Source of the DNA: a virus
Lineage: Duplodnaviria > Heunggongvirae > Uroviricota > Caudoviricetes
Length of the DNA stretch: 7,390 nt
Strand: one strand, 5' to 3'
Virus record (IMG/VR): IMGVR_UViG_2695420478_000017
Span: 1-7,390 of that record
Made by a program: the position numbers and the translations under genes. Shown in pieces: positions 1 through 7,390 of this stretch (its first letter is position 1; every line of letters starts with the position of its first letter). The notes under the pieces are model-generated. The model ran no database searches and was not told the origin of the DNA. It saw only the letters and a list, made by a program, of their open reading frames with translations.

Positions 1-24
1 CGGCAGAAGCAGAAAAAGCTTATT

Positions 25-570
25 ATGCTTCCATCGGAAACGATGATCTGGCAGCCTGAGTTCACAGATAAAACACTCTCCAGGAAACCCGGGGCGGTTC
101 AAACCGAAGAAGTGGACCAGCTGGCATCAAAGTTAATGGCTGCAAGTGAGGAACTTCAAAAGCTGGGATGTTCATTTTACTCATGCGATGTCAGTTCATG
201 TTCGATTTATCTGACTGTATCTGGAAGAAGGGTTGGCTGGCATTCATACGGAAAAGACGGCAACGGTGAAGATATATTGCTCCCTACCCCCGACAAAGAT
301 AAATGCATGTTTGACGCAGAACACAAAATAACAAAAAGGTTTGATGAAATCTGCGCATTGCAACAAAAACTTGAAGCCAGGAAAAAGGATATAGAATCAA
401 ACGTATGGGCTGCTTTGAACTCAGTCACAACAGTTAAGCGACTTATTGAAGTTTGGCCTGAAAGCAAAGAGTTGCTACCAAAAGAAGCAGATAAAGCAAG
501 TGCAGCACTTCCTGCTTTACGGGTAGAAGATTTGAATAAGATGATTGGACTTCCTTCCGAGGCCGCATAA
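25..570 (+). CDS. Hypothetical protein, 181 aa from first ATG; start uncertain and possibly 5'-partial
   Basis: Long ORF with protein-like composition in the slot upstream of cIII where lambda carries ea10/ral. The frame is open back to position 1 and no strong SD precedes the ATG at 25 or 43, so the gene may begin upstream of the window. Product not recognised. Confidence 0.5.
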   Translation: MLPSETMIWQPEFTDKTLSRKPGAVQTEEVDQLASKLMAASEELQKLGCSFYSCDVSSCSIYLTVSGRRVGWHSYGKDGNGEDILLPTPDKDKCMFDAEHKITKRFDEICALQQKLEARKKDIESNVWAALNSVTTVKRLIEVWPESKELLPKEADKASAALPALRVEDLNKMIGLPSEAA

Positions 571-585
571 TCGGCCTTTATTTTT
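560..585 (+). terminator. Putative intrinsic terminator (stem aggccg/cggcct, 6-nt loop, then TTATTTTT)
   Basis: Hairpin at 560-577 followed by a T-rich tract at 578-585; it overlaps the stop codon of the upstream ORF. Confidence 0.4.
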
Positions 586-614
586 GGCATAAACAACAGA
601 ATAAACACTGCACT

Positions 615-642
615 GTGTATTCATTCCAACGAGTGAATACAC
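615..642 (+). other. Strong 12-bp inverted repeat / RNA hairpin, 4-nt loop, no U-tract
   Basis: gtgtattcattc (615-626) pairs with gagtgaatacac (631-642) with one G-U wobble; loop is caac. Not followed by a T run. Confidence 0.4.
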
Positions 643-704
643 GGAGCAATGTCGCTCGTAACTAAACAGGAGCCGACTTGTTCTGATTATTGGAAATCTT
701 CTTT

Positions 705-728
705 GCCCTCCAATGTGAGGGCTTTTTT
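705..728 (+). terminator. Intrinsic terminator (gccctc / caatgt / gagggc + TTTTTT)
   Basis: 6-bp GC-rich stem at 705-710 and 717-722, followed directly by six T at 723-728. Confidence 0.55.
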
Positions 729-794
729 ATATGCATACCAATAACGCTTCACTAGAGGCGTTTTCGTTATGTGTAAATAAATAAGGAGCACACC

Positions 795-959
795 ATGCAA
801 TATGCCATTGCAGGGTGGCCTGTTGCTGGCTGCCCTTCCGAATCTTTACTTGAACGAATCACCCGTAAATTACGTGACGGATGGAAACGCCTTATCGACA
901 TACTTAATCAGCCAGGAGTTCCCAAAAATGGATCAAACACTTATGGCTATCCAGACTAA
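795..959 (+). CDS. cIII: CIII, protease (FtsH) inhibitor that stabilises CII
   Basis: Translation [54 protein letters not shown] (54 aa) matches lambda CIII as recalled; SD TAAGGAG at 782-788. It is not in the ORF track as a separate ORF because it overlaps the frame-1 ORF 802-1071. Confidence 0.9.
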   Translation: MQYAIAGWPVAGCPSESLLERITRKLRDGWKRLIDILNQPGVPKNGSNTYGYPD

Positions 960-1071
960 ATTCACTATCGCCACTTTTATTGGTGATGAAAAGATGTTTC
1001 GTGAAGCCGTCGACGCTTATAAAAAATGGATATTAATACTGAAACTGAGATCAAGCAAAAGCATTCACTAA
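928..1071 (+). CDS. kil: Kil, host cell-division (FtsZ) inhibitor
   Basis: Internal Met of track ORF 802-1071 gives [47 protein letters not shown] (47 aa), matching lambda Kil; overlaps the cIII 3' end by 32 nt as in lambda. Confidence 0.85.
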
Positions 1072-1091
1072 CCCCTTTCCTGTTTTCCTAA
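1026..1091 (+). pseudogene. gam: Frame-disrupted remnant of the long-form Gam N-terminal extension
   Basis: ATG at 1026 encodes [18 protein letters not shown] then LFS-stop. The continuation [29 protein letters not shown] is readable in the GamS frame from about 1079. The two ATGs are 119 nt apart (not a multiple of 3). Confidence 0.6.
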
Positions 1092-1144
1092 TCAGCCCGG
1101 CATTTCGCGGGCGATATTTTCACAGCTATTTCAGGAGTTCAGCC

Positions 1145-1441
1145 ATGAACGCTTATTACATTCAGGATCGTCTTGAGGCTCAGAGCTGGGCGCGTCACTA
1201 CCAGCAGATCGCCCGTGAAGAGAAAGAGGCAGAACTGGCAGACGACATGGAAAAAGGCCTGCCCCAGCACCTGTTTGAATCGCTATGCATCGATCATTTG
1301 CAACGCCACGGGGCCAGCAAAAAAGCCATTATCCGTGCGTTTGATGACGATGTTGAGTTTCAGGAGCGCATGGCAGAACACATCCGGTACATGGTTGAAA
1401 CCATTGCTCACCATCAGGTTGATATTGATTCAGAGGTATAA
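1145..1441 (+). CDS. gam: Gam, short form (GamS, 98 aa), RecBCD inhibitor
   Basis: Translation [21 protein letters not shown]...[10 protein letters not shown] matches lambda Gam; strong SD AGGAG at 1133-1137, 7 nt before the ATG. Confidence 0.9.
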
Positions 1442-1446
1442 AACGG

Positions 1447-2217
1447 ATGAGTACAGCACTCGCAACGCTGGCAGGGAAGCTGGCTGAACGTGTCGGCATG
1501 GATTCTGTCGACCCACAGGAACTGATCACCACTCTTCGCCAGACGGCATTTAAAGGCGATGCCAGCGATGCGCAGTTCATCGCATTGTTGATCGTCGCCA
1601 ACCAGTACGGCCTTAATCCGTGGACGAAAGAAATTTACGCCTTCCCTGATAAGCAGAACGGCATCGTTCCGGTGGTGGGCGTTGATGGCTGGTCCCGCAT
1701 CATCAATGAAAACCAGCATTTTGATGGCATGGACTTTGAGCAGGACAATGAATCCTGTACATGCCGGATTTACCGCAAGGACCGTAATCATCCGATCTGC
1801 GTTACCGAATGGATGGATGAATGCCGCCGCGAACCATTCAAAACCCGCGAAGGCAGAGAAATCACGGGGCCGTGGCAGTCGCATCCTAAACGGATGTTAC
1901 GGCATAAAGCTATGATTCAGTGTGCCCGTCTGGCCTTCGGATTTGCTGGTATCTATGACAAGGATGAAGCCGAGCGCATTGTCGAAAATACTGCATACAC
2001 TGCAGAACGCCAGCCGGAACGCGACATCACTCCGGTTAACGATGAAACCATGCAGGAGATTAACACTCTGCTAATCGCCCTGGATAAAACATGGGATGAC
2101 GACTTATTGCCGCTCTGTTCCCAGATATTTCGCCGCGACATTCGCGCATCGTCAGAACTGACACAGGCCGAAGCAGTGAAAGCTCTTGGATTCCTGAAAC
2201 AGAAAGCCACTGAGTAG
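1447..2217 (+). CDS. bet: Bet (Red-beta) single-strand annealing protein, 256 aa; C-terminus 5 aa shorter than lambda Bet
   Basis: Translation matches lambda Bet from [26 protein letters not shown] to ...LGFLKQKA; it ends at TAG 2215-2217, while the lambda-position stop TGA at 2230-2232 is still in frame downstream. Confidence 0.93.
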
Positions 2218-2228
2218 AAGGTGGCAGC

Positions 2229-2909
2229 ATGACACCGGACATTATCCTGCAGCGTACCGGGATCGACGTGAGAGCTGTCGAACAGGGGGATGATGCATGG
2301 CACAAATTACGGCTCGGCGTCATCACCGCTTCAGAAGTTCACAACGTGATAGCAAAGCCCCGCTCAGGAAAGAAGTGGCCTGACATGAAAATGTCCTACT
2401 TCCACACCCTGCTGGCTGAGGTTTGCACCGGTGTGGCTCCGGAAGTTAATGCTAAGGCGCTGGCCTGGGGAAAACAGTACGAGAACGACGCCAGAACCCT
2501 CTTTGAGTTCACTTCCGGCGTTAATGTTACTGAATCCCCGATCATCTATCGCGACGAAAGTATGCGCACCGCCTGCTCTCCCGATGGTTTATGCAGTGAC
2601 GGCAACGGCCTTGAACTGAAATGCCCGTTTACCTCCCGGGATTTCATGAAATTCCGGCTCGGTGGTTTCGAGGCCATAAAATCGGCTTACCTGGCCCAGG
2701 TGCAGTACAGCATGTGGGTGACACGAAAAGATGCCTGGTACTTTGCCAACTATGACCCGCGTATGAAGCGTGAAGGCCTGCATTATGTCGTGGTTGAGCG
2801 GGATGAAAAGTACATGGCGGGTTTTGACGAGATGGTGCCGGAGTTCATCGAAAAAATGGACGAGGCACTGGCTGAAATTGGTTTTGTATTTGGGGAGCAA
2901 TGGCGATGA
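2229..2909 (+). CDS. exo: Exo (Red-alpha) 5'-3' dsDNA exonuclease, 226 aa
   Basis: Translation [50 protein letters not shown]...[10 protein letters not shown] matches lambda Exo with a few substitutions; SD AGGTGG upstream. Confidence 0.93.
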
Positions 2910-3088
2910 AGCATCCTCACGATAATATCCGGGTAGGTGCGATCACTTTCGTCTACTCCGTTACAAAGCGAGGCTGGGTATTTCCCGGCCTTTCTGTTAT
3001 CCAAAATCCACTGAAAGCCCAGCGGCTGGCTGAGGAGATAAATAATAAACGAGGGGCTGTATGCACAAAGCATCTCCTGTTGAGTTAA
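2906..3088 (+). CDS. Small protein, lambda orf60a-like (60 aa from ATG 2906; alternative ATG at 2900 gives 62 aa)
   Basis: ORF directly after exo; ATG 2906 overlaps the exo stop as ATGA, and length and position match lambda orf60a as recalled. The sequence match itself is from memory and unverified. Confidence 0.55.
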
Positions 3089-3252
3089 GAACGAGCATTG
3101 AGATGGCACATAGCCTTGCTCAAATTGGAGTCAGGTTTGTGCCAATACCAGTAGAAACAGACGAAGAATTTCATACGTTAGCCACATCCCTTTCGCAAAA
3201 GCTGGAAATGATGGTGGCGAAAGCAGAAGCAGATGAGAGAGACCTGGTATGA
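3061..3252 (+). CDS. Small protein, lambda orf63-like (63 aa)
   Basis: 63-codon ORF overlapping the previous gene by 28 nt, same geometry as lambda orf63/orf60a; translation [63 protein letters not shown]. Confidence 0.6.
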   Translation: MHKASPVELRTSIEMAHSLAQIGVRFVPIPVETDEEFHTLATSLSQKLEMMVAKAEADERDLV

Positions 3253-3332
3253 CAACCACTGAATGCATTTTTCTGGCAGCGGGCTTCATATTCTGTGTGC
3301 TTATGCTTGCCGACATGGGACTTGTTCAATGA
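3249..3332 (+). CDS. Candidate small hydrophobic (membrane) peptide, 27 aa
   Basis: ATG 3249 overlaps the orf63-like stop (ATGA) and its stop TGA 3330-3332 overlaps the next ATG at 3329 (ATGA). Translation MTTTECIFLAAGFIFCVLMLADMGLVQ has a hydrophobic core consistent with one transmembrane helix. Too short for the ORF track. Confidence 0.35.
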   Translation: MTTTECIFLAAGFIFCVLMLADMGLVQ

Positions 3333-3544
3333 CACCTCAGCAAGAAAACGCCCTTCGCAGTATTGCCCGTCAGGCTAATTCTGAAATCAAAAAAGCCAGA
3401 CAGCAGTTTCCGGATAAAAACGTCGATGACATTTGCCGTAGCGTACTGAAGAAGCACCGCGAAACGGTAACGCTGATGGGATTCACACCGACTCATTTAA
3501 GCCTGGCGATCGGCATGTTAAACGGCGTCTTTAAGGAACGGTGA
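3329..3544 (+). CDS. Hypothetical protein, 71 aa (track ORF 3263-3544 trimmed to the coupled internal ATG)
   Basis: ORF in frame with track ORF 3263-3544; start at 3329 preferred because it is translationally coupled to the upstream peptide. Translation MTPQQENALRSIARQANSEIKKARQQFPDKNVDDICRSVLKKHRETVTLMGFTPTHLSLAIGMLNGVFKER. Product not recognised. Confidence 0.45.
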   Translation: MTPQQENALRSIARQANSEIKKARQQFPDKNVDDICRSVLKKHRETVTLMGFTPTHLSLAIGMLNGVFKER

Positions 3545-3566
3545 GCATGAAAAACAAAATCATCAT

Positions 3567-3590
3567 GGAGCTACAGGCTCCTTTTTTATT
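3567..3590 (+). terminator. Putative intrinsic terminator (ggagc / tacag / gctcc + TTTTTTATT)
   Basis: 5-bp GC-rich stem at 3567-3571 and 3577-3581, then six T at 3582-3587. Confidence 0.4.
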
Positions 3591-3642
3591 ATTCGCATTC
3601 ACCCTCAAGCGTATTAACCAACAATTCAGGGATTAATGAAAG

Positions 3643-3864
3643 ATGGCAGACATCATTGATTCAGCATCAGAAATTGAAGAATTACAGCGCAACACAGCAA
3701 TAAAAATGCGCCGCCTGAACCACCAGGCTATATCTGCCACTCATTGTTGTGAGTGTGGCGATCCGATAGATGAGCGAAGACGCCTGGCTGTTCAGGGTTG
3801 TCGGACTTGTGCAAGTTGCCAGGAGGATCTGGAACTTATCAGTAAACAGAGAGGTTCGAAGTGA
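3643..3864 (+). CDS. TraR/DksA-family C4-type zinc-finger protein (73 aa), likely RNA polymerase secondary-channel binder
   Basis: Translation carries CCECGDPIDERRRLAVQGCRTCASCQ, i.e. two Cys pairs (CxxC...CxxC) near the C-terminus with an acidic N-terminal segment, the layout of TraR-like phage and plasmid proteins. Confidence 0.7.
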   Translation: MADIIDSASEIEELQRNTAIKMRRLNHQAISATHCCECGDPIDERRRLAVQGCRTCASCQEDLELISKQRGSK

Positions 3865-4631
3865 GCGAAATTAATTATCAGGCACTGCGTGAAAAGGCAG
3901 AAAAAGCAACTAAAGGAAGCTACATCGTAGGGCATACATCTGTTAATCGGCATGGCAATTTAACAGGAGTTTTTGTTTGTCAAAAATGGAAAGGAGAACC
4001 CGGTGGCGTGATTGCAGAATGTCACGTTAACTGCCTGGTTGAAACAGATGCTCAGGCTTATGCAAACGCTGAATTCATAGCAGAGGCTAACCCGGCTACC
4101 GTGCTGGAACTGCTGGATGAACGGGAAAGAAACCAGCAATACATCAAACGCCGCGACCAGGAGAACGAGGAGATTGCGCTTACGGTTGGGAAGCTGCGTG
4201 TTGAGCTTGAAGCAGCAGAGAACAACCTTATTGATAGTGAATGCCATGTTGCTGAACTGGAAGAAGCTCTACGCGATAAGCAGGCGTTACTTGAAGCCTC
4301 AGAAAAGCGCAACGCAAAATTACAAAGCGAGAATGCATACATCCGCAACCGGTACAAAGAACTGGACCTATTAATCGGGAAAAACATTCTGGTCATGCAG
4401 GCTGCCATTATCGAATGGCAGGCAACTGGCGACGCTAAGAGCGGACTAGCATGGATTTATAACACACTGTTTGGCCCTGGCGAATTACCGGACGAATCTG
4501 AGAAAGATGCTCAGGCCTACTTTAATCGCAAATATGCACCGATTGACGAAAATCTCATGGAGCTTCACAAGTGGTTTTGGGAACAAAGTGAAGCCGAGCG
4601 CGCCGCTGGCATTCGCATCAAAGGAGAGTGA
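3861..4631 (+). CDS. Ea22-like protein (256 aa), GTG start overlapping the upstream stop
   Basis: N-terminus MSEINYQALRE, central LELLDERERNQQYIKRRDQENEEIALTVGKLRVELE coiled-coil segment and C-terminal AGIRIKGE resemble lambda Ea22 as recalled; GTGA overlap with the TraR-like gene; SD-like AGAGAGG upstream. Confidence 0.7.
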   Translation: MSEINYQALREKAEKATKGSYIVGHTSVNRHGNLTGVFVCQKWKGEPGGVIAECHVNCLVETDAQAYANAEFIAEANPATVLELLDERERNQQYIKRRDQENEEIALTVGKLRVELEAAENNLIDSECHVAELEEALRDKQALLEASEKRNAKLQSENAYIRNRYKELDLLIGKNILVMQAAIIEWQATGDAKSGLAWIYNTLFGPGELPDESEKDAQAYFNRKYAPIDENLMELHKWFWEQSEAERAAGIRIKGE

Positions 4632-4632
4632 T

Positions 4633-5280
4633 ATGAGCGCTATAACCAAAGATCGACTACTGACAATCAAGCAGTGGCGCGAAACATACGGACCGGGTAG
4701 CAACGTTGTACTGCCAGCAGAAGAAGCGGAAGAACTGGCACGAATTGCGCTGGCATCACTGGAACGCGAACAGATTCGCCACGAGCATGCCAAATGGTCT
4801 GACTCCACATTTGGCTGCGTTGGCCCCATTGGTCCGCTGAAACATCTCTCAAAAGAGGCACTGGAAGCCGCAGCCGAACCAGACGATCTTAGCGAGTGGG
4901 CTGATATGCAGTTTCTGTTGTGGGATGCACAGCGCCGTGCTGGCATCAGCGATGCTGAAATTAACGTTGCTATGGAAGATAAATTGAAGATCAACATGGA
5001 GCGCCAGTGGCCTGAGCCAAAAGATGGTGAGCCTCGCTTGCACATTAAAGAACCCGGCAACTCTCCGGTAACTCCTGATGGTTGGATAAGCTGTAGTGAG
5101 CGAATGCCGGATACCAAAACAGCCGTTCTTGTTGCCAGGGAGTTTGACAGGAAAGGTGACTGGCGAATGAAATGGGCGACTTACATCCCGGGGCATCCTG
5201 ACGCTAATGATGGGTGGATAATTCCTGGTGCGTCGTGGAAACCGTCACACTGGATGCCGCTACCAGAGCCTCCCCTTTGA
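4633..5280 (+). CDS. Two-domain protein (215 aa): MazG-like all-alpha NTP pyrophosphohydrolase-like N-domain (DUF550-type) plus DUF551-like C-domain
   Basis: Track ORF 4471-5280 trimmed to ATG 4633, which has SD AAGGAGAG and sits 2 nt after the Ea22-like stop. N-terminal motifs (EEAEEL, HAKWS, STFG, LKHLSKEALE, EWAD, INMERQW) and the C-terminal WISCSERMPD ... SHWMPLPEPP pattern match those families as recalled. Confidence 0.6.
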   Translation: MSAITKDRLLTIKQWRETYGPGSNVVLPAEEAEELARIALASLEREQIRHEHAKWSDSTFGCVGPIGPLKHLSKEALEAAAEPDDLSEWADMQFLLWDAQRRAGISDAEINVAMEDKLKINMERQWPEPKDGEPRLHIKEPGNSPVTPDGWISCSERMPDTKTAVLVAREFDRKGDWRMKWATYIPGHPDANDGWIIPGASWKPSHWMPLPEPPL

Positions 5281-5376
5281 TAGCTAAGCTTATACATATC
5301 TTTTACATCAGCAATCTATTGTTAATCTCCAATCAATGTTACGTTGTCATCTCTCTCATGCTTTGGAGGTAGTGAT

Positions 5377-5556
5377 ATGTCTTGTCCAAAATGCGGTTCT
5401 GGAAATATTGCAAAAGAAAAAACAATGCGTGGATGGTCTGATGATTATGTGTGCTGCGATTGCGGATACAACGACTCTAAAGACGCATTTGGAGAGCGTG
5501 GTAAAAACGATTTTGTCAAAATTAATAAAGAACGCGAAGGCAACGAAAAAAGCTAA
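5377..5556 (+). CDS. Small zinc-ribbon protein, 59 aa (CPKCG ... CCDCG)
   Basis: Track ORF 5344-5556 trimmed to ATG 5377, which has a strong SD GGAGG at 5365-5369 (7-nt spacing). Two CxxC-type motifs: MSCPKCGSGN ... YVCCDCGYN. Confidence 0.55.
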   Translation: MSCPKCGSGNIAKEKTMRGWSDDYVCCDCGYNDSKDAFGERGKNDFVKINKEREGNEKS

Positions 5557-5619
5557 TTTATTTATTCATATATGAAAACAATGTAACCAATATTCGAATT
5601 GAAGAACTGAAAGAACACC

Positions 5620-5644
5620 AAGCCGCCTGATGGCGGTTTTTTTT
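5620..5644 (+). terminator. Intrinsic terminator (ccgcc / tgat / ggcgg + 8 T)
   Basis: GC stem at 5623-5627 and 5632-5636, extendable by a G-U and two A-U pairs, followed by TTTTTTTT at 5637-5644. Confidence 0.6.
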
Positions 5645-5658
5645 ATTGGAGACAAGAA

Positions 5659-6003
5659 ATGTCAGATTTGGCTATGAAGGTTTTGAAATGGCAATCGACT
5701 GGCGATGTTGGCATCAGTAGCGCAACTCTTGCCTCAATCGCATGTGGACTGAAAAAGAATATCTATGGTCATCACTTCGGCGCTCCCCATGACGCAGCCG
5801 ATTTCAGACGATGCGTTGCACTTGTTGAGCAGATTCCAGAAATCAGAGATTCATTCAACAAGGTTGCAAAGCGCGTTCCGGCATTCAAAGGAATCCTCAA
5901 CGAATGGGATTCCCTCGTTGCTCTGTTGAAGTCTGAAATGAAGATACACGGAAACAAAGCACCAGAGACTTACAGAAGAATCAGCGAGCTACGCAAGGAC
6001 TAA
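5659..6003 (+). CDS. Hypothetical protein, 114 aa, unknown function
   Basis: Clean ORF with SD GGAGA at 5648-5652 (6-nt spacing); bracketed by a terminator upstream and a hairpin plus terminator downstream. Product not recognised. Confidence 0.6.
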   Translation: MSDLAMKVLKWQSTGDVGISSATLASIACGLKKNIYGHHFGAPHDAADFRRCVALVEQIPEIRDSFNKVAKRVPAFKGILNEWDSLVALLKSEMKIHGNKAPETYRRISELRKD

Positions 6004-6018
6004 CCATGAAATAACACC

Positions 6019-6037
6019 GCCTCACACTCGGTGAGGC
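6019..6037. other. Hairpin (gcctcac / actcg / gtgaggc) just after the stop of the 114-aa gene
   Basis: Perfect 7-bp inverted repeat with a 5-nt loop; no clear U-tract on either strand. Confidence 0.3.
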
Positions 6038-6072
6038 CTGTTCATTGCTCAATGATATCCAGACCTACCATC

Positions 6073-6096
6073 GCCGCATCAATGCGGCTTTTTCTT
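6073..6096 (+). terminator. Putative intrinsic terminator (gccgca / tcaa / tgcggc + TTTTTCTT)
   Basis: 6-bp stem at 6073-6078 and 6083-6088, followed by a T-rich tract at 6089-6096. Confidence 0.5.
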
Positions 6097-6108
6097 GCGT
6101 GTAATTGC
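6095..6108 (+). promoter_or_regulatory. CII-binding direct repeat TTGC-N6-TTGC, the pI-type activator site for int
   Basis: TTGC at 6095-6098 and at 6105-6108 (TTGCGTGTAATTGC), just upstream of the xis ATG at 6121. This is the arrangement known for lambda pI, whose transcript starts inside xis. Confidence 0.55.
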
Positions 6109-6120
6109 GGAGACTTTGCG

Positions 6121-6339
6121 ATGTACTTGACACTTCAGGAGTGGAACGCTCGCCAGCGACGCCCAAGAAGCCTTGAAACAGTTCGTCGATGGGTGCGCGA
6201 ATGCAGGATATTCCCTCCTCCGGTTAAGGATGGAAGAGAGTATCTGTTCCACGAATCAGCGGTAAAGGTTGACTTAAATCGACCAGTAACAGGTAGCCTT
6301 TTGAAGAGGATCAGAAATGGGAAGAAGGCGAAGTCATGA
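6121..6339 (+). CDS. xis: Excisionase Xis (72 aa)
   Basis: Internal Met of track ORF 6031-6339 gives MYLTLQEWNARQRRPRSLETVRRWVRECRIFPPPVKDGREYLFHESAVKVDLNRPVTGSLLKRIRNGKKAKS, matching lambda Xis; 3' end overlaps the int start. Confidence 0.9.
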   Translation: MYLTLQEWNARQRRPRSLETVRRWVRECRIFPPPVKDGREYLFHESAVKVDLNRPVTGSLLKRIRNGKKAKS

Positions 6340-7390
6340 GCGCCGGGATTTACCCCCTAACCTTTATATAAGAAACAATGGATATTACTGCTACAGGGAC
6401 CCAAGGACGGGTAAAGAGTTTGGTTTAGGCCGAGACAGGAGGATAGCAATCACTGAAGCAATACAGGCCAATATTGAGTTACTCTCAGACAGCGGACGCA
6501 AATCACTAATAGACAGAATTAAAGGCGGTGACGCAATCACTCTTCATGTGTGGCTTGACCGATATGAAACAATCCTCACCGAAAGGGGGATCAGGCCGAA
6601 AACTCTACTCGACTACGCCAGCAAAATCAGGGCAATCCGAAGAAAATTGCCGGACAAACCGCTCACTGACATATCAACGAAAGAAGTGGCAGCAATGCTA
6701 AACACCTACGTAGCAGAAGGTAAAGCAGCTTCCGCAAAATTAATCAGGTCAACCCTTGTTGACGTTTTTCGTGAAGCAATAGCCGAGGGGCATGTGGCAA
6801 CGAATCCGGTAACAGCAACCCGTACAGCAAAGTCAGAAGTAAGGCGCTCAAGGCTGACAGCTAATGAGTATGTCGAGATTTACCATGCAGCCGAACCTCT
6901 CCCTATCTGGCTAAGGCTGGCGATGGATTTGGCCGTCGTTACAGGGCAGAGAGTCGGCGATTTGTGCAGAATGAAATGGTCAGACATAAACGACAACCAT
7001 CTTCACATTGAACAGAGTAAAACAGGGGCTAAACTCGCCATTCCGCTAACGCTAACGATTGACGCGCTCAATATCTCATTGGCTGATACACTACAGAAAT
7101 GCAGGGAGGCCAGCAGCAGTGAAACTATAATCGCATCAAAGCATTACGATCCTCTTTCCCCGAAAACAGTATCAAAGTATTTTACAAAGGCGAGAAATGC
7201 ATCTGGACTCTCATTTGATGGAAACCCGCCAACATTCCATGAACTGCGTAGCCTGTCAGCGAGGCTATACCGGAACCAGATTGGCGATAAATTTGCTCAA
7301 CGTCTTCTCGGGCATAAATCAGATTCAATGGCGGCGCGGTATAGAGACAGCCGTGGACGGGAATGGGACAAAATTGAAATCGACAAATGA
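6317..7390 (+). CDS. int: Tyrosine-family site-specific integrase Int (357 aa)
   Basis: N-terminus MGRRRSHERRDLPPNLYIRNNGYYCYRDPRTGKEFGLGRDRRIAITEAIQANIEL matches lambda Int; C-terminal catalytic signature present (VVTGQRVGDL, HELRSLSARLY, LLGHKSDSMAARYRD). Stop codon is the last 3 nt of the window. Confidence 0.95.
   Translation: MGRRRSHERRDLPPNLYIRNNGYYCYRDPRTGKEFGLGRDRRIAITEAIQANIELLSDSGRKSLIDRIKGGDAITLHVWLDRYETILTERGIRPKTLLDYASKIRAIRRKLPDKPLTDISTKEVAAMLNTYVAEGKAASAKLIRSTLVDVFREAIAEGHVATNPVTATRTAKSEVRRSRLTANEYVEIYHAAEPLPIWLRLAMDLAVVTGQRVGDLCRMKWSDINDNHLHIEQSKTGAKLAIPLTLTIDALNISLADTLQKCREASSSETIIASKHYDPLSPKTVSKYFTKARNASGLSFDGNPPTFHELRSLSARLYRNQIGDKFAQRLLGHKSDSMAARYRDSRGREWDKIEIDK

Follow-up and report, generated by a model that had tools for sequence, protein, structure and literature searches.

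A lambdoid-prophage orf73 gene and its TraR-family product, a probable early inhibitor of host rRNA promoters

Does the short reading frame at positions 3643-3864 of a stretch of viral DNA from the class Caudoviricetes (IMG/VR record IMGVR_UViG_2695420478_000017, positions 1 to 7,390) encode a protein that acts on the host RNA polymerase (RNAP), and if so, in which way? Here, the whole 7,390-nucleotide stretch that was analyzed is referred to as the window. A sequence-only reading had described the product as a 73-residue protein with a C4 zinc finger of the TraR/DksA type, and had attributed to it a ppGpp-like reprogramming of host transcription. Its position at the head of a coupled block with an Ea22-like gene was taken as a sign of a role in host-transcription takeover.

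The plus strand at 3643..3864 holds an intact 73-codon ORF with an ATG start and a TGA stop, as seen both in the ORF list and in the DNA itself. The translated product (73 aa) is MADIIDSASEIEELQRNTAIKMRRLNHQAISATHCCECGDPIDERRRLAVQGCRTCASCQEDLELISKQRGSK, in which the translation and the alignments place six cysteines, i.e., C35, C36, C38, C53, C56 and C59. A 73-aa ORF with a C4 zinc finger, as proposed at the outset, is thus borne out by the translation and by Pfam and PHROG matches beyond chance. The gene and the segment just ahead of it are as follows.

3628..3642, plus strand: putative ribosome-binding region AGGGATTAATGAAAG, just 5' of the orf73 ATG (sequence; phage 434 annotation)
3643..3864, plus strand: orf73, 73-aa TraR-family zinc-finger protein (ORF; Pfam PF01258; lambda and 434 identity)

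The segment at 3628..3642 is likely the ribosome-binding region of orf73; the phage 434 annotation gives the corresponding bases as the ribosome-binding site of an identical gene, and lambda has the same bases with no difference. Two antisense ORFs on the minus strand, at 3633-3740 and 3792-3953, were set aside as mechanical, the homology and annotation evidence being all on the plus strand.

A Pfam search, which was among the checks suggested with the sequence-only reading, identified the TraR/DksA zinc-finger family in the product. The domain PF01258 (zf-dskA_traR, prokaryotic dksA/traR C4-type zinc finger) matches residues 33-64 with 35.8 bits (E = 7.7e-9), against a gathering score of 24.9 bits, and PHROG 54 ("DksA-like zinc-finger protein") is aligned over residues 1-71 with E = 2e-25. 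The NCBIfam model TIGR02419 (C4_traR_proteo), which describes the proteobacterial TraR family of phages and conjugal plasmids, is aligned over model positions 1-64 of 64 with E = 5.6e-15 and 55.7 bits, i.e., a little under the NCBI curated cut-off of 59.7. The best full-length structural relative is F-plasmid TraR in its complexes with RNAP (PDB 5w1s, 6n57/6n58 and 6psq-6psv), aligned over residues 1-64 with E about 1e-4, while the alignment with E. coli YbiI (2kgo) is confined to the zinc finger, residues 29-65.

The residues by which TraR is recognized are found in the product as well. The arrangement C35xxC38, 17 residues, C56xxC59 falls on C37/C40/C58/C61 of TraR in the alignments, and this CxxC-17-CxxC element is predicted to be a zinc site that matches that of TraR. 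The N-terminal DxxDxA motif is present in the translation as D3-I-I-D6-S-A8, where D6 and A8 are near-invariant across the aligned homologues, and R46/R47, also near-invariant among them, align with TraR R48/R49. The features of DksA, on the other hand, are absent, i.e., Orf73 has 73 residues as compared to about 150, and in the alignment its N-terminal region pairs with the single TraR helix. Taken at the level of sequence, these comparisons support assignment of Orf73 to the TraR family. A single-sequence AlphaFold2 model gave, as expected, helices at residues 5-30 and 56-70 with a loop region between them, but at low confidence (pLDDT 58.5, pTM 0.30). A Foldseek search of the PDB with that model (pLDDT 58.5) returned no match, a blank that is uninformative, rather than counter-evidence to the fold, because of the low model confidence. 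For lambda Orf73, an AlphaFold model with a pLDDT of 93 and a docked Orf73-RNAP model have been published (PMC8614690).

Comparison with known phages gives the gene its name. The protein is identical to lambda Orf73 at 72 of 73 residues, the sole difference being A49 here and V49 in lambda, and the genes differ at 4 bases of 222 (DNA about 98% identical). In phage 434 the product CPT_434B_37, annotated as a "zinc finger domain protein", is 100% identical to the protein encoded here, and the 933W protein is 99% identical, differing at one residue other than 49. The alignment shows A49 to be the usual allele, found in 434, 933W and Stx1 phages, with lambda V49 as the exception. In lambda, the unannotated gap between ea22 and orf61 contains, at the corresponding place, a 73-codon ORF that overlaps ea22 by 4 nt just as in the window. 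Judged by these comparisons, the gene at 3643-3864 belongs to a lambdoid prophage of the 434/Stx-phage-like type and is its orf73, an orthologue of lambda orf73. The lambda protein (alias Orf2310), encoded in the exo-xis region of the pL operon, has the same length, neighbours, six cysteines, family hallmarks and GTGA overlap; the exo-xis layout is also the same in phage 434, where the protein is without any difference, and in Stx phages (933W and Phi24B-type).

The early-left (pL) operon of a 434/Stx-like lambdoid prophage makes up the window. Its genes were assigned from the ORFs and Pfam matches, compared with the annotations of lambda and phage 434, and are listed in the direction of transcription.

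795-959: cIII
within 802-1071: kil
1145-1441, plus strand: gam
1447-2217: bet
2229-2909: exo
2900-3088: orf60a (DUF1317)
3061-3252: orf63 (DUF1382)
3263..3544, plus strand: orf61-like gene, 93 aa, the full-length form that Stx phages also have (PHROG 303, E = 2.5e-43)
3861..4631, plus strand: ea22-like gene, 256 aa, GTG start (Pfam Ead_Ea22 PF13935, E = 2.1e-35)
4633-5280, plus strand: dATP/dGTP pyrophosphohydrolase + DUF551
5344-5556 and 5659-6003, plus strand: two small genes, function not known
6121-6339: xis
6317 to the window end: int

The order exo-orf60a-orf63-orf61-orf73-ea22 is the same in the window, lambda, 434 and 933W, and a conserved exo-xis block orf60a-orf63-orf61-orf73-ea22 has been described for lambda and Stx phages (PMC8614690). 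Four bases, GTGA, are common to the orf73 stop and the ea22 GTG start, as they are in lambda, which suggests translational coupling of the two genes. The proposal that orf73 heads a coupled block therefore holds as far as the coupling with the Ea22-like gene is concerned, but not for its place at the head, because a 31-codon ORF precedes orf73 by 6 nt. The coupled chain extends past ea22, since the ATG of the gene at 4633-5280 lies one base beyond the ea22 stop. The genomic position, which had been read as a pointer to a takeover function, is no evidence of function.

Unlike in lambda, the orf61-like gene is full length in the window. When aligned with lambda and 933W, it encodes 93 aa both here and in 933W, whereas in lambda one extra A in an A6 run (near window position 3390) ends Orf61 after 61 aa, with a second ORF of 60 aa remaining; the lambda truncation has been recorded previously (PMC8614690). 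The RefSeq name of the 933W counterpart, "cell division protein ZapA", finds no support from Pfam or NCBIfam. The ea22 gene also differs, as it encodes 256 aa here as compared to 182 in lambda; the N-terminus, the central coiled-coil (LELLDERERNQQYIKRRDQENE...) and the final AGIRIKGE are common to both and the remainder differs, i.e., judging from the aligned segments, ea22 is a mosaic gene here.

Further observations concern the other genes of the operon. The 215-aa product of 4633-5280 (plus strand) consists of a dATP/dGTP pyrophosphohydrolase domain (PF04447, E = 2.3e-41) fused to DUF551 (E = 2.5e-21). The 70-aa product of 5344-5556 (plus strand; PHROG 2945) is a zinc ribbon, whose matches to Lar and HVO_2753-type fingers are weak and below threshold, and the 114-aa product of 5659-6003 (plus strand; PHROG 1229) is without a Pfam or NCBIfam match. 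A 181-aa protein (PHROG 1965) encoded at 25-570 on the plus strand occupies the place of lambda ea10/ral. From the first listed ATG, gam at 1145-1441 encodes 98 aa as compared to 138 aa in the lambda RefSeq record, the same as the 98-aa form of 434.

The function of lambda Orf73 was studied directly by Gopalkrishnan et al. (mBio 2022; PMC9239242), and the assays that the sequence-only reading had named, i.e., RNAP binding and transcription from rrnB P1 and amino-acid promoters, are already published there for the lambda protein. [quoted passage not shown] Labelled DksA and lambda Orf73 compete for E. coli RNAP, showing that the two bind at the same site, and the variants D3N and D6N have much reduced activity (PMC9239242). 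In lambda, Orf73 is expressed from pL at 5-20 min post induction, and expression of orf73 from pL or from a plasmid slows host growth, while the lambda lytic promoters that were tested are unaffected (PMC9239242). After treatment with mitomycin C, the phage yield of the wild-type lysogen is 3-4 fold above that of in-frame deletion or D3A/D6A lysogens (PMC9239242). Activation of thrABC, argI and rpoH P3 by lambda Orf73 is weak, if any, which the authors suggest may reflect the two extra cysteines of Orf73 (PMC9239242).

These data bear on the two functional claims of the sequence-only reading. Takeover of host transcription is supported by the RNAP binding and rrnB P1 inhibition of the 99%-identical lambda Orf73 (PMC9239242). 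A ppGpp-like reprogramming stands with respect to its inhibitory arm, but the lambda protein barely activates amino-acid promoters (PMC9239242), so that the activating arm falls away.

The same studies and our alignments also place Orf73 among its relatives. F-plasmid TraR belongs to the same 73-aa class and has the same layout, with an N-terminal DxxDxA motif, CxxC-17-CxxC and an RR pair; both TraR and lambda Orf73 act at the DksA site of RNAP. The two proteins differ in that the identity is about 34%, C36 and C53 are extra in Orf73, the gene is found in a phage early operon rather than a conjugation operon, and TraR activates thrABC, argI and rpoH P3. E. coli DksA and YbiI have the dksA/traR C4 zinc-finger domain in common with Orf73, and DksA shares its RNAP site with lambda Orf73. 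DksA stands apart by a length roughly double that of Orf73, by its coiled-coil hairpin and by a requirement for ppGpp to reach full activity.

From the above, it appears very probable that the window protein works in the same way as lambda Orf73, i.e., as an early inhibitor that acts through the RNAP secondary channel on rRNA and ribosomal-protein promoters without ppGpp. Here, the biochemistry and the phenotypes would be carried over from a lambda protein that differs at one residue (V49A), which adjoins the R46/R47 pair, and we infer that this single difference changes nothing. The structural contacts of Orf73 would be those seen for TraR, where the conserved contacts are made between the DxxDxA tip and the active-site region, R48 and the rim helices, R49 and beta'Si3, and the C-terminal helix and betaSi1 (PMC9239242).

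According to this model, orf73 would be transcribed early from pL within the exo-xis block, and Orf73 would enter the secondary channel of the host RNAP with no binding to DNA. The N-terminal helix would bring the D3xxD6xA8 tip toward the RNAP active site. The globular Zn-ribbon domain, with C35, C38, C56 and C59 and the R46/R47 pair, would rest against beta'Si3 and the rim helices, and betaSi1 would be contacted by the C-terminal helix. The altered RNAP conformation would destabilize the short-lived open complexes formed at rRNA and ribosomal-protein promoters, which would lead to shutdown of these promoters without ppGpp. Host transcription and resources would then be diverted to the phage, so that the host would grow more slowly and the burst would be enlarged 3-4 fold.

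The only serious rival to this account concerns the biological role of Orf73 and not its biochemistry. The main role could be a pro-lysogenic or cell-cycle one, in which Orf73, Ea22 and neighbours block initiation of host replication ("bin") and favour lysogeny, and such a role could be compatible with the RNAP-binding biochemistry. The literature is in conflict on this point, as an earlier study, cited in PMC9239242 and PMC8614690, had orf73 as pro-lysogenic and reducing phage yield. In assays from the Wegrzyn laboratory, as summarized in PMC8614690, deletion of orf73 lowered host survival and the efficiency of lysogenization, and both orf73 and ea22 were classed as pro-lysogenic; earlier work, as cited in PMC9239242, implicated orf73, ea22, ea8.5 and orf55 in the block of host replication initiation. 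The translational coupling to ea22 that the GTGA overlap suggests for the window would fit such a joint action. However, non-polar point mutations and the in-frame deletion of lambda orf73 lower the yield after induction 3-4 fold, dnaA mRNA is lowered weakly or not at all, and the authors put the conflict with the pro-lysogenic data down to polar effects and to differing methods of inactivation and induction (PMC9239242). We consider a mainly pro-lysogenic role to be possible but on the unlikely side.

Two other readings would alter the biochemistry itself. Orf73 shares the dksA/traR zinc-finger domain with DksA and might by that token be a DksA-type cofactor that requires ppGpp and amplifies the host stringent response instead of replacing it. 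Yet, the protein has 73 residues and apparently a single N-terminal helix, with no DksA coiled-coil hairpin in the alignment or in the low-confidence model, and the reading is contradicted by the inhibition of rrnB P1 by lambda Orf73 without ppGpp and below DksA concentrations (PMC9239242), which makes it extremely improbable. The small size of the ORF and the missing annotation in RefSeq lambda (NC_001416) could also be taken to indicate a chance ORF, or else the product could be some general zinc-finger regulator that binds DNA and has no link to RNAP. Against chance, the 73-codon ORF is kept intact across hundreds of phages (435 phage records encode a relative), orf73 DNA is found in 3316 of 5426 complete E. 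coli genomes (about 61%), the family matches are significant across the full length, and ribosome profiling shows that orf73 is translated in lambda (PMC9239242, PMC8614690). TraR-family proteins, moreover, act without binding DNA (PMC9239242), and we assign practically no probability to either form of this reading. Early inhibition of rRNA and ribosomal-protein promoters through the RNAP secondary channel is the reading that we retain.

The two cysteines outside the predicted zinc site have different distributions. C36 is found in the lambdoid clade only, according to the alignment of homologues. C53 is conserved among phage homologues, even those of Enterobacter and Klebsiella phages that are about 52% identical, but in P2-type proteins and in F-plasmid TraR the position is V. 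It is conceivable, if improbable, that with C36 and C53 Orf73 might be a TraR variant that senses redox state or metals, through an alternative zinc ligation or a C36-C53 disulfide. If so, oxidative stress, also the inducing signal of Stx prophages, might modulate the inhibition of host rRNA transcription, and the finding of inhibition without activation by Orf73 could be explained as well.

The region between the orf61-like gene and orf73 holds two further features.

3541..3636, plus strand: 31-codon small ORF between the orf61-like gene and orf73 (ORF list)
3567..3590, plus strand: terminator-like hairpin GGAGCU-ACA-GGCUCC, followed by UUUUUUAUUA (U-tract) (consensus scan)

The GTG of the small ORF and the stop of the orf61-like gene share the bases GTGA, an ATG is present at 3547, and the ORF ends 6 nt 5' of the orf73 ATG. 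An equivalent 31-aa ORF is found at the same place in lambda (MNMKSKIIRELQAPFLLFAFTLKRINQQFRD), and the counterpart in phage 434 is annotated. Ribosome profiling has identified an "orf2313" of 31 aa (PMC8614690), and the ORF at 3541-3636 is, by our own identification, probably this "orf2313". The hairpin, at 3567-3581 and with its U-tract reaching to 3590, lies inside the small ORF, appears in both the MFE and the centroid folds and is identical at every base in lambda; the z-score of the region is only -1.25, i.e., not unusual. From its sequence it is a candidate terminator. The consensus scan also returned a second terminator-like site at 2970-2992. The plasmid pKD46 carries lambda 31088-33241, which we take to include tL3 and hence to place tL3 just 3' of exo, so that lambda tL3 presumably corresponds to the site at 2970-2992. 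The hairpin at 3567 was considered as tL3 and rejected, as this assumed location just after exo matches 2970-2992.

The orf73 gene is already known, named, experimentally characterized and very common. In E. coli genomes the DNA is labelled by PGAP as "TraR/DksA family transcriptional regulator", several Stx-phage records label the product "hypothetical protein", and RefSeq lambda NC_001416 and 933W NC_000924 have no CDS for orf73, though the ORF is intact in both. The practical value of the present analysis is in annotation, i.e., both RefSeq records have a gap at an experimentally characterized gene. For Shiga-toxin phages, orf73 would matter because shutdown of host ribosome synthesis by Orf73 raises phage yield. 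The best phage matches span only 69-78% of the window and the widest match to any single phage or genome about 82%, a limit that is expected of a lambdoid mosaic. In lambda NC_001416 the orf73 ORF is located at 30392-30613 on the minus strand.
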